Source: an uncultured Gemmatimonadales bacterium
Lineage (GTDB): Bacteria > Gemmatimonadota > Gemmatimonadetes > Gemmatimonadales > GWC2-71-9
Assembly (NCBI GenBank): GCA_963842945.1
Contig: CAWJIM010000004.1
Span: forward strand, 32,001 to 96,000
Reading direction: 5' to 3'
DNA length: 64,000 nt
Shown: in pieces, positions 50,405 through 54,408 of the stretch
Layout of the letters: each line of letters begins with the position of its first letter
Numbering within the stretch: position 1 is the first letter of the stretch
Position numbers and translations under genes: made by a program
Notes under the pieces: generated by a model
Told to the model about the DNA's origin: nothing
Seen by the model: the letters and a program-made list of their open reading frames with translations, nothing else
The model's database searches: none

Positions 50405-51276
50405 CCGGTCGAGTCGGACTCCGCTTCTCCAGTCTGCTGCGCCTGACCCGCACCCATCTCCCGGAGTTCGGCCCCGGCCTGGGCACTGGCCAGGTACCGG
50501 ACCGCATCTTTTGCCATGGTGGCGGGCCGGGCCACCTTTTCGGATCCGAGGATTGGTTCTTGAGCGCCCACACGTTGGTGATGAAATCGGCGTCCTTGGG
50601 TTCAGTCTTCTTCCAGCTCACGCCCTTGGGCATGACACCCGATGCCGGCGGCATCGGACCGTTCAGGGTGACCTTCTTGGCGACCAGGGTCACCCCTTGG
50701 CTGGGATCGACCCACCGGAGCATGACCATGGGAGCCCCCGGCATGACGCAAGCACTGCCCTTCTTCATCTTGTAGACGTTGCACTTCTGGCCGGCGATGG
50801 TCTCCGAACCAGCCTGCTCCCCGAAGACGGGTGACGTACGCGTCGGCGTCGCTCCCGCCGCCGAGCTCAGTGGCCAGCCTGAGATTCTCCCGGAACCGTG
50901 CCTTGCCGGATGCATCGAGTGCGGCATACTCTCGGGCGAGGTGAGGCCTTAATAAGGCGCTCACCTCACCCGCCTCCTGGCCGCCCATTTTGTTGTAGGT
51001 GTACTGGGAGTCTTTCGTCGCGACCACGAAGGAGCGGAGGGTGTCCTTCTTTCCAGACGCCTCCAACGGCATGACCATCCTCATGATCATCTGGTCCGCC
51101 GCGACTCCCAACTCAGAGGTAGGGGCCGCGCCGGGCTGCTGCTTCTGGGCGCTCACCTCGTATACGATATAGGCGGTTTTGACCGAGCCGCCGGTAAGGG
51201 CAAAGGGATTGTCCTGGGCTGCAACTGAGCCGGGCAAGAGCAGCGCGAGAATCGCTGCTCGGCGCGGAGTAAGCAT
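50398..51276 (-). CDS. Exported hypothetical protein; frameshifted
   Basis: Signal peptide ...VAAQ; GSETIAGQKCNVY motif; AGGAG SD. Confidence 0.6.
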
Positions 51277-51414
51277 CGAAATGACTCCTGGAAACGGGGA
51301 AATTGAAACGGGGACACTAAGATCGTCACACCGGAGCCCGGCGCGCCAGGGGGGAATTGTCGAGCGCCGCAGTCTCGCAGTATGTTGGGGTTCTTCTGAG
51401 ACACGGAGCGCGCA

Positions 51415-51995
51415 ATGAAAACGACCTCTTTACCCCTCACTGTATCTCATCGTGGCTCTGCCGGCGGTTCTCGCTGCCCAGAAAACCCCTCGATATCGGT
51501 ACCGTGGCACCAGGCTTCACCATGAATGGCGCCACCCGTTACGGCGTCCTCGCCCGCCCCATCCATCTCTCCGATTTCAAGGGCAAGACCGTTGTCCTGG
51601 CGTTCTTCTACAAGGCCCGAACCAGCGGCTGAACCGTCCAAATGAACGCGTACCGTGATCAGTACGCGAAGCTCTTCAAGAACGGCCGCAACGTGGTGCT
51701 CATCGCGATCAGCGCCGACCCCGACACCGCCCTCGCTTCCTGGGCACGGGACTCGGAGTTCCCGTTTCTGTTCGCGAGCGATACCGGGACGGCCGTCGCC
51801 AAGCGATACGGCGCCCTTGCCGACAAGCCGGGCATGACCAACCGCAACCTGTTCGTGGTGGGACCGGATGGGAGGATCGCCTACCGGGCGACTCCGTTCC
51901 GGGAAGTCGATCCGACGGCCTATACCGAGCTGGGAGCAGCGATTCAGAAGGCGGCAGGACCGAACGCCGTTGAGGGAAAAAATAACCGCTGCTGA
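51415..51995 (+). CDS. BCP/PrxQ-like peroxiredoxin with in-frame UGA (candidate selenocysteine) at the peroxidatic site; 5' end has indels
   Basis: APGFT..LSDFKGKTVVLAFFYKARTSG-TGA(51630-32)-TVQMNAYRD..IAISAD..FPFLFASD..RNLFVVGPDGRI; ORFs 51357..51632 and 51642..51995 are in the same frame. Confidence 0.85.
51643..51678 (+). other. Candidate bacterial SECIS hairpin
   Basis: Stem CGCGTAC (51647-53)/GTACGCG (51662-68); loop CGTGATCA with G at position 2 followed by U; 21 nt between UGA and loop; lower pairing TGAA/TTCA. Confidence 0.65.
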
Positions 51996-52027: not shown

Positions 52028-52521
52028 TTACCGGGCCGTGATGGTTGGCATCGAATAAAACCCTCCCAGAATCGCGCCATAGATCAGGTGCGCGAACAGC
52101 ACCGAGATCGGCGTCTGGTAGCCGTAGTTGAGCGCCAGGAATCCGGGCGGCTCGAGCTGGCGGGTCACGGTCGGGCCCTGCTGCTCGCTGGCCATGCGCG
52201 GGATGCAGGCTCGGCAGCAGGCTCACACCGACGGTCAGCACGAACGAGCGCCTGCACCAGCCCGATGCGCCGCGCCGGGCCACCAGGTGGCCCGGCCCCA
52301 GACGTGAAACGCGGCGACGTAGACCAGCGAGAAGATCCAGCCGTTCACCAGGTGGACAGGAAGCCGACCAGCTTGGCCCGCTCGCGGTTGGGGGTGAAGA
52401 TCGTGCCCAGCATGTAGGGGAGATTCATGCGGGTGAGGCCGAGCCCCTGGCTGCCGGCCAGCACCGTGGTGAGCGCCAGCGTCGCCACGAAGCCCCAGAG
52501 CAGCCAGGCTCTCCAGTTCAT
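52028..52521 (-). CDS. Membrane protein coupled to the GH15 gene; frameshifted
   Basis: [42 protein letters not shown] and HLIYGAILG segments. Confidence 0.72.
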
Positions 52522-54408
52522 ACCTGGACCTCCTGCGTGCTTCGGCATCCTCCGGCTTCGTCGCGGCACCTGCCGCGGCATCGGCGTCTCGCCCTCCAGC
52601 CGCCGGCTGAGGGAGAGCGCCGCGTTGATCAGGCCGACGTGGGTGAAGGCCTGGGGAAAGTTGCCCAGCGCGGCGCCGGTCGCCGGGTCGATCTCCTCGG
52701 CGAAGAGCCCGACGTCGTTGGCGTGGCCGCAGAGCCGCTCGAACAGCTGCCGCGCCTCGTCCACGCTGCCGCCTCCGAGTGCGAGGTACTCCACAGCCCA
52801 GAAGCTGCAGATGCCGAACGCGCCCTCCCCGGGCGAGACGGGCTCGCCCTCTTTCTCCGGCTCTGATCCGCTGGTAGCGGTAGAGCAGCCCGTCGCCGGC
52901 GCCCAGCCGCTCGCGAATCCGCTGGTAGGTCTGCCGCATCCGCTCGGAGGTGGCGGACTCGAAGCCGTACCAGGCGAGCAGCAGCAAGCGTGGCGTCCAC
53001 CCGGTCGCCCTCCAGCTCGGCGACGTAGCTTTCCAGCGCCGGATTCCAGGCCCGCGCGTCTCGACCTGCCGGCGAATGGCCTCGCGGTTCTCCTCGAACT
53101 TCGCCCCGGGCGCCCAGCGCACATGGTCCTTCGCGTGCAGCTGTAGCAGCCGGTCGAGTGCCACCCAGCACAGCACCCGGGAATGGGTATGGTGGGCTCG
53201 GCCGGTGCGCGGCTCCCAGATGCCTTCGTCGGGCTCCTCCCAGTGCCGGCAGACGTATTCGCCCCAGGCGCGCAGCACCCGCTGGGTCTCCCGGTCCAGG
53301 CTGCCGCCCGCCTGCGACGAAGTGGGTCACGGCGTCGATCACCTCGCCGTAGACGTCGAGCTGAAGCTGCTCCGCGGCCAGGTTGCCGATCCGGACCGGC
53401 CGCGATCCGCGGTGTCCAGCCAGGTGATCCAGCGTGCGCTCGGCGGGCGGCTTGTTGCCGTAGACGTCGTAGAGCACCCGCAGCTCGGGCCGGGTCAGGC
53501 GGGTGGCGTGCAACAGCCAGTTGACGAAGGCGTGGGCCTCGTCCACGCAACCCAGACCGATCAGCGCGCGCACCGTGAGCGAGGCGTCGCGCAGCCAGCA
53601 GAAGCGATAGTCCCAGTTGAGCGGCCCGCCGATCCGCTCGGGCAGCGAGGTGGTCGGCGCGGCGACCACGGCACCCGAGGGAGCGAAGACCATGAGCTTG
53701 AGGGCCAGCGCGCTGCGAATCACCGCCTCGCGGCAGGGGCCGTCGTAGCGCGACGCTGGAGGCCCAGCTCTGCCACCAGCGCACCGTGCGCTCGAGCGCG
53801 GCGCGCGACCACTCACCCAGCGGCGGCAGCACCGCCGGCCCCTCGGCCGCGAAGGTGAGCGAGGCGTGGGCCGCGCTCCTGCGCAGAGCCGGGCACGGCC
53901 CGAACCGTGCCGTCACTGCCGATCTCGGGCGGCAGGTCGGTCCGCGAACATGAGCAGACCCGCGCCGGTCTCGACCCGAAGCCCCAGCTGTCCGGCCTGG
54001 CGCAGGCCGCGGTCGGAGTCCGTAGCCGGGACGCGGCTCGAACGACCACTCGATCTCCACCTCGCCGCGCTCGCACTCGATCAGCCGGAGGATCTCCCGC
54101 TCGGGCAGCAGCAGGCGTTGCTTCTCCTCCTCCGAGGCACACCGGCATCAGATCGGTGAGGACCAGCGTGCCCGCTTCGGTGTTGAACCGGGTCTGGAGC
54201 ACGTTGGTGTCTTCGATGTAGCGGCGTGCGGTCTGGAAGGGCGCGGCCGGGGCGATGCGCCAGTGCCCGGCGGAGGGTCGAGGAGCGCCCCGAAGACGGA
54301 GGGACTGTCGAACCGCGGCCAGCAGAGCCAGTCGATCGATCCGTCGCGCCCCACCAGGGCGACGGACCGGCCATCGCCGATAGCCGCGTAGTCGCCGATG
54401 GCGTTCAT
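52518..54408 (-). CDS. GH15 family glycoside hydrolase (trehalase/glucoamylase-like); multiple frameshifts
   Basis: [70 protein letters not shown] and GNFPQAFTH motifs. Confidence 0.9.

Follow-up and report, generated by a model that had tools for sequence, protein, structure and literature searches.

The window analysed here, a stretch of 64,000 nucleotides, contains a gene that looks broken by an in-frame TGA, which raises the question of whether it is damaged, or whether it encodes a selenoprotein that gene calling has cut in two. Translation confirms what an earlier note on this DNA had stated, namely that both ORF halves lie in a single frame, reading LAFFYKARTSG-*-TVQMNAYRD across the TGA, and a genome-wide scan places this TGA first among 211 that are flanked on both sides by coding-like sequence. 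The apparently stop-broken gene, whose features are collected in Table 1, encodes, almost certainly, a single exported enzyme of the antioxidant type that has selenocysteine (Sec) at its catalytic site. In structural terms, it is very likely one intact gene for an exported, single-selenocysteine enzyme of the peroxiredoxin (Prx) fold, belonging to the BCP/PrxQ type.

Table 1. Features of the predicted selenoprotein gene; positions are those of the window.
Feature	Position	Strand	Remarks
Shine-Dalgarno-like GGAG	51405..51408	+	6 nt 5' of the start codon; sequence observed, function putative
Start codon and signal-peptide-like segment	51415..51481	+	Hydrophobic, ending with an AxA-type site; Gln 51479-81 comes next
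Homopolymer runs with frame errors	near 51418-21 and 51482-89	+	Interrupt the signal-peptide-like segment
Mature peroxiredoxin-fold domain (AhpC-TSA, PF00578)	51486..51995	+	Single frame across the TGA
Tyr replacing Pro of PxxxTxxC/U	51609..51611	+	
Thr of the TxxU motif	51621..51623	+	T in 156/160 TGA forms
In-frame UGA, predicted selenocysteine	51630..51632	+	Peroxidatic position
Bacterial SECIS, predicted	51643..51678	+	Upper stem 51647-53/51662-68, loop 51654-61
SECIS lower helix, weaker	51643-46/51675-78	+	
Conserved catalytic Arg	51843..51845	+	R117 of the read-through protein P0001

The read-through protein, P0001, matches the AhpC-TSA family with 93 bits against a cut-off of 26 (Pfam E 1.7e-26), and its AF2 model, built on an alignment of 47 sequences, reaches a pLDDT of 95 and a pTM of 0.91. 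The best fold match is Bcp4 (3hjp, TM 0.84), the values for Bcp4, 2ywn and the 1-Cys AhpE 1xxu ranging from 0.80 to 0.84, and the best PDB sequence matches are likewise BCP/PrxQ and AhpE proteins (E 2e-13, about 29-30% identity). Bcp4, 2ywn and AhpE are Cys enzymes, with the motif Pro kept in the two alignments examined; AhpE resembles P0001 in being without a resolving Cys, and P0001 differs from the BCP/PrxQ/AhpE structures by additional residues that are inserted ahead of its first core strand. When P0001 is aligned with its homologues, the UGA falls on their peroxidatic Cys, with Thr at -3 and Tyr at -7, and Arg117 is invariant in the 47 aligned sequences and coincides with the Arg of the Bcp structures. 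The position of the stop on the catalytic Cys of BCP/PrxQ, the kept Arg and the replacement of the motif Pro by Tyr, all of which the earlier note had read from the single gene, are thus borne out, as is its statement that the core has no resolving Cys: P0001 has a single Cys, directly in front of its stop codon, that orthologues do not have, and no other Cys occurs in 65/67 TGA and 2/2 Cys orthologues. Among the best full-length database proteins, 119 of which were parsed, 115 have one Cys and four have none. P0001 does not reach the curated cut-offs for BCP (PRK09437, 57 of 140 bits), PrxQ (NF053650, 42 of 260 bits) or the prototype PrxU (NCBIfam NF040737, 47 of 270 bits), the source of which we take to be Eubacterium acidaminophilum. 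Because of these failed cut-offs and the missing Pro, P0001 is filed as a variant, which would work like a Sec-Prx.

The 229 matches found for this protein reduce to 186 distinct orthologue loci (L023-L249 without L070, a distant Bacteroidota CxxC protein), of which 160 have TGA, 24 TGC and two TGT at the catalytic position; the Cys loci were chosen deliberately from the first 150 of the 211 matches listed, so that 160:26 is not a frequency. The TGA is kept down to about 50% protein identity, and 46 of 48 related loci come from Gemmatimonadota or from a group within it. It is very improbable that the TGA is a sequencing error or that this genome carries the gene as a pseudogene. The assembly is indeed rich in frame errors, with selA, selB and ccdA split and the N-terminus of the present gene placed in another frame, but the TGA recurs in 160 distinct loci of many assemblies and in an intact sister copy on contig C14 (84% identity), and the contigs of relatives that align over 51630-32 show no letter other than those of TGA, none of them covering 51329-51516. 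The TGA itself cannot be an error. Further upstream lie the breaks at which the correction of two homopolymer indels had been proposed to give a signal peptide. A signal-like hydrophobic segment is present, in a different frame from P0001 as assembled, and the breaks match the error pattern of the assembly, in which ccdA is likewise split by frame errors; the exact N-terminal sequence given by the two-indel reading is uncertain, since comparison with the C14 copy suggests that there are perhaps more than two errors. The gene end at 51995, which follows an A-run (51977-82), may reflect a further frame error, and a promoter and terminator scan found no site upstream of the peroxiredoxin gene.

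A further reading takes the UGA as a true stop, the product being the 117-residue ORF that starts at ATG 51642, or else takes the hairpin described below as an unrelated regulatory element. This ATG, four codons past the UGA, is found in 158/160 TGA forms, and databases list the corresponding fragment. The same Met codon is, however, present in 26/26 Cys forms and is therefore a structural residue; moreover, the fragment has neither the signal nor the first strands nor the catalytic site, and the upstream half of the protein is conserved as much as the downstream half, which leaves this reading exceedingly improbable. The expectation that standard annotation misses the gene agrees with the two fragments looked up (2/2), for which public gene calls keep a downstream piece of 108-113 residues, named hypothetical or redoxin-domain protein, and none of the best 120 full-length database matches is a recognisable Sec form. 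The full-length database proteins P0002-P0005, in which Trp or Leu occupies the Sec position and the hairpin-coded peptide is intact, are probably wrong-code translations, base errors or misread Sec forms.

Downstream of the UGA lies the predicted SECIS, whose perfect 7-bp stem closes an 8-nt loop that begins with C-G-U 21 nt after the UGA, just as the earlier note had described it. Folded alone, the hairpin has an energy of -9.4 kcal/mol. It agrees with the bacterial SECIS model given in PMC13188914, in which the loop has 3-9 nt (here 8), the stem 4-16 bp (here 7), a G stands within the first two loop positions (here at position 2), the distance from the UGA is 16-37 nt (here 21) and the MFE is at most -7.5. 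Its folding energy is not beyond chance (z = -1.0, 30 of 200 shuffles folding equally well) and was rejected as evidence for a SECIS; the evidence for the hairpin is its conservation. The 20-base core (+18 to +37) is identical in 154/160 TGA forms, with one loop base different in the other six, and has decayed in all 26 Cys forms, which differ in 3 to 10 bases. A complete 7-bp stem is found in 154/160 TGA forms versus 1/26 Cys forms. An alternation of this kind is far from a family in which all homologues have Cys and no hairpin is conserved, the outcome that had been named as speaking against selenocysteine.

The outer pair of the stem joins two wobble positions and occurs as C-G (79), U-A (52), G-C (20), A-U (2) and U-G (1), with an unpaired A-A in six forms. 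In the first 67 loci, which give 53 distinct rows, this pair shows 12 two-sided changes, a number reached by none of 500 shuffles in a control that ignores kinship. The other six of the seven upper-stem pairs are invariant and therefore give no covariation signal. In 160/160 TGA forms, there is no variation of codon at +6, +7, +8, +10 and +11, codon +8 being CGT in all of these versus 2/26 Cys forms; at comparable four-fold sites outside the hairpin, the top codon accounts for 43-75%, except for Gly -1 at 88%. The lower TGAA/TTCA pairing, which had been put forward as an extension of the stem, is upheld in part: it is present in the MFE fold of 61 nt and 94.8% paired in the 53 distinct orthologue rows, but none of these rows has a two-sided change in it, and it does not form when 51643-51678 is folded alone.

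The machinery for reading such an element is found in the host genome (G000), a Gemmatimonadales MAG as judged from its relatives, which is 87% complete and 6% contaminated, and in which the earlier note had advised a search for selA, selB, selC and selD. All were found. SelA is above its cut-off in three frameshifted pieces, selB lies on contig C2, where frameshifts divide it into pieces and so keep it below its cut-off, selD has one TGA within the gene, and two tRNA-Sec genes with a TCA anticodon score 63 and 70 bits, above the Rfam tRNA-Sec cut-off. There is very little doubt that SelB would bind the hairpin and deliver Sec-tRNA to the UGA, the insertion mechanism itself being ordinary. The second tRNA-Sec (C15) and the second copy of the peroxiredoxin gene (C14) were rejected as true duplications, as C14 and C15 double C4 and C1 in syntenic order with 78-88% identity; these doubles probably come from a co-binned relative, which fits both the syntenic doubling and the 6% contamination.

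The presence of the TGA form follows that of the machinery. Among 95 genomes with the codon read, those with TGA only comprise 67 with and three without selA, those with Cys only one with and 21 without, and those with both forms three with and none without, counts that are not independent because the genomes are related. In the three genomes that have TGA but no selA match (G054, G217 and G220; 85-95% complete), selB is present throughout, together with a selD with TGA in G217 and G220 and a tRNA-Sec in G054, so that Sec machinery is evident in 73/73 genomes with the TGA form. Two families are represented among the Cys-only genomes. G049 (100% complete) and G057 (99%, one contig) have Cys and neither selA nor tRNA-Sec. 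Of the unpublished genomes, G217 is included in the 95-genome table, the 160 TGA forms and the tree, and G003, G102 and G194 enter only the survey tallies given below; no conclusion rests on unpublished genomes.

The same data bear on the idea that a dedicated suppressor tRNA reads the UGA as Cys or as another residue. UGA-reading tRNA-Cys variants have been described in some bacteria, and Cys orthologues of P0001 exist; on the other hand, the only TCA-anticodon tRNAs among the 52 tRNAs of G000 are tRNA-SeC genes above the Rfam cut-off, the TGA forms follow selA/selB, and the SECIS-type hairpin is conserved only in TGA forms. Since all TCA-anticodon tRNAs are called tRNA-SeC, recoding of UGA to Cys has no support, and the suppressor idea is extremely unlikely, in line with its earlier ranking as the lesser alternative. 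Insertion of Sec at the UGA, which had been proposed in its place, is supported by the TGA in 160/186 loci, the Cys forms without hairpin and the presence of selA, selB, selC and selD; none of the three outcomes that the earlier note had named as refuting it was observed.

Export, which had likewise been proposed, is supported by the N-termini of the orthologues, 60 of which, out of 67 with enough flanking sequence, are signal-like in a crude screen for hydropathy and an AxA site. The seven that fail include the copy of this window, frame-broken copies and two slightly below the threshold. It is highly likely that the N-terminal signal takes the protein across the inner membrane and that the N-terminal frame breaks of the present copy are long-read errors.

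The commonest neighbours of the orthologues are ccdA (PF02683) and a gene for an exported TlpA-like protein, which converge on the Sec gene. A converging tlpA is found in 81/135 loci with 1000 bases of flank, 79 of the 81 having CxxC, and ccdA stands behind it in 74/127 loci with 1700 bases of flank; among loci of at least 80% identity, the link with ccdA-tlpA is kept in only 6/39. In this window, the gene is not beside ccdA-tlpA, its neighbours being an exported-looking ORF and a glycoside hydrolase 15 gene. The former (50602-51276, minus strand) is divergent, has no Pfam match, apparently continues in another frame and is syntenic on C14; the latter (52028-54408, minus strand) is glycoside hydrolase 15/trehalase-like, is split between frames into several pieces, after which comes a gene for a small membrane protein, and converges on the Sec gene. 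Elsewhere in G000 (C2:316997-315113, minus strand; loci L250 and L252), ccdA, a tlpA whose exported product has CxxC, and the gene of an exported peroxiredoxin with Cys are co-directional. The peroxiredoxin is a paralogue with 39% to P0001 that retains the Pro, and this run is likely an envelope reducing operon that serves the Cys paralogue where relatives have the converging Sec gene.

A comparable route is described for PprX of Caulobacter crescentus, a periplasmic BCP/PrxQ protein that is reduced by TlpA and ScsB/DsbD (PMC3322552). P0001 resembles PprX in being of the BCP/PrxQ type with predicted export, tlpA and a DsbD-type gene (ccdA) being the commonest neighbours of its orthologues; it differs in that PprX has Cys, the complete PxxxTxxC, a resolving Cys and ScsB as partner, whereas P0001 would use Sec, has neither the Pro nor a resolving residue and would have a small CcdA in the place of ScsB. 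By this analogy, TlpA fed by CcdA is a likely reductant route. As for the catalytic cycle, the selenolate, held by Thr and Arg, would probably reduce H2O2 or organic peroxides and be converted to selenenic acid, although we infer peroxidase activity from fold and motif only. Since there is no resolving Cys, re-reduction is proposed to occur directly by the CxxC of the exported TlpA, with electrons supplied via CcdA, as in the ScsB-TlpA-PprX relay of Caulobacter, a step for which the chances are judged slightly better than even.

One reason to question peroxidase activity is the residue at position -7. The Pro found there is described as absolutely conserved in Prx (PMC3322552) and as crucial, within a highly conserved PxxxTxxU (PMC13188914), and its absence means that peroxidase activity is possibly altered or lost. 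The protein could then be an exported selenoprotein that is not mainly a peroxidase and, after the loss of Pro, has another redox role in the envelope, for instance in a thiol/selenol relay, in the repair of sulfenic acids or in the handling of metals. Consistent with this are the Phe, Tyr or Ile in place of Pro in 153/160 Sec forms, the lack of a resolving Cys in 65/67 orthologues, the failure to reach any curated Prx cut-off and the example of PrxL of Caulobacter, a Prx-like envelope protein with no detectable peroxidase activity (PMC3322552). Nevertheless, Thr, Arg and the full Prx fold are retained, the direct Cys orthologues have the whole PxxxTxxC and are named peroxiredoxin Q/BCP by their sources, and Pro is kept in seven Sec forms, so a role other than that of a peroxidase is considered unlikely.

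Across the 160 TGA forms, position -7 is F in 101, Y in 51, I in one and P in seven, and it is Pro in 26/26 Cys forms. The best 120 full-length database proteins comprise 116 with Cys, of which 114 have Pro and two an aromatic residue instead, and four with Trp or Leu at the Sec site and an aromatic residue at -7. A quick, unrooted tree of 108 of the 183 rows, for which the diagnostic columns were masked, requires eight changes for Cys, two of them forced by starred branches, and a test on 62 rows that were chosen after the quick tree had been seen speaks against a single clade of the 22 Pro forms (p-AU 0.0002). The residue at -7 has so switched more than once, nearly always together with Cys; co-evolution and the direction of the switch are suggested. 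As a statistical claim, Pro-Cys co-evolution lacks support, as there are only three independent pairs on starred branches (p 0.5).

A wider, tentative and rather doubtful reading is that Sec frees the Prx active site from its invariant Pro, in a phylum-wide envelope enzyme that pairs Sec with an aromatic residue and Cys with Pro, has switched several times and has reverted to Cys-Pro where the Sec machinery was lost. If true, it would be a counter-example to two views expressed in section 10 of PMC13188914, that bacterial Sec-to-Cys changes are uncommon except in FdhA and SelD and that selenoproteins are seldom retained in aerobes, and it would provide a paired series for the use of selenium in an oxidising compartment. 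The Sec-aromatic and Cys-Pro pairings also constitute natural variants for studying the role of the conserved Prx Pro.

Sec-Prx proteins (PF00578, TxxU) are an established bacterial family (PMC13188914 Table 1, PMC1794560, PMC2398784, PMC5029168), with 91 proteins in 78 organisms (PMC5029168) and 253 in GOS (PMC2398784). P0001 shares with them PF00578, Sec at the peroxidatic position, TxxU, a SECIS just 3' of the UGA and the alternation of Sec and Cys, and differs by Tyr/Phe for Pro, the predicted signal peptide, the lack of a second Cys, the PrxQ size and a score far below the PrxU cut-off. The main text of PMC13188914 and PMC5029168 does not mention Gemmatimonadota as a Sec-Prx host, and that of PMC13188914 does not contain 'Gemmatimonad', 'periplasm' or 'signal peptide'. 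Both Sec-Prx (TxxU) and periplasmic PrxQ (PprX) are known, and their combination was not found in literature searches; these, at the level of the papers listed, revealed no description of an exported Sec-Prx of Gemmatimonadota without the motif Pro, though supplementary tables could list it. In a survey of 251 Gemmatimonadota genomes, 200 had an ortholog-level match and 204 had selA. Given this spread and its annotation as fragments only, an envelope enzyme that depends on selenium has probably been overlooked in a phylum common in soil, and selenium may be of importance for the oxidative-stress biology of Gemmatimonadota.

Some loci and genomes combine several forms. A Sec form with Pro kept stands in tandem with a Cys form in L217 (G265), L233 (G239) and L064, and G097 has both forms on different contigs. 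G000 itself has further likely selenoproteins, which we take to be SelD (C19:381810, plus strand), a SelW-like protein with CxxU (C3:161158, minus strand), an FdhA, that is, a formate dehydrogenase alpha subunit (C5:153550, minus strand), and another Prx, names that were given from motifs. In each of the first three, a hairpin may form at a distance of about 19-22 nt from the UGA, on its 3' side. The second Prx (C24:122028, minus strand) has an in-frame TGA at the peroxidatic site and a weak hairpin, with the motif Pro present and an N-terminus that is not signal-like.
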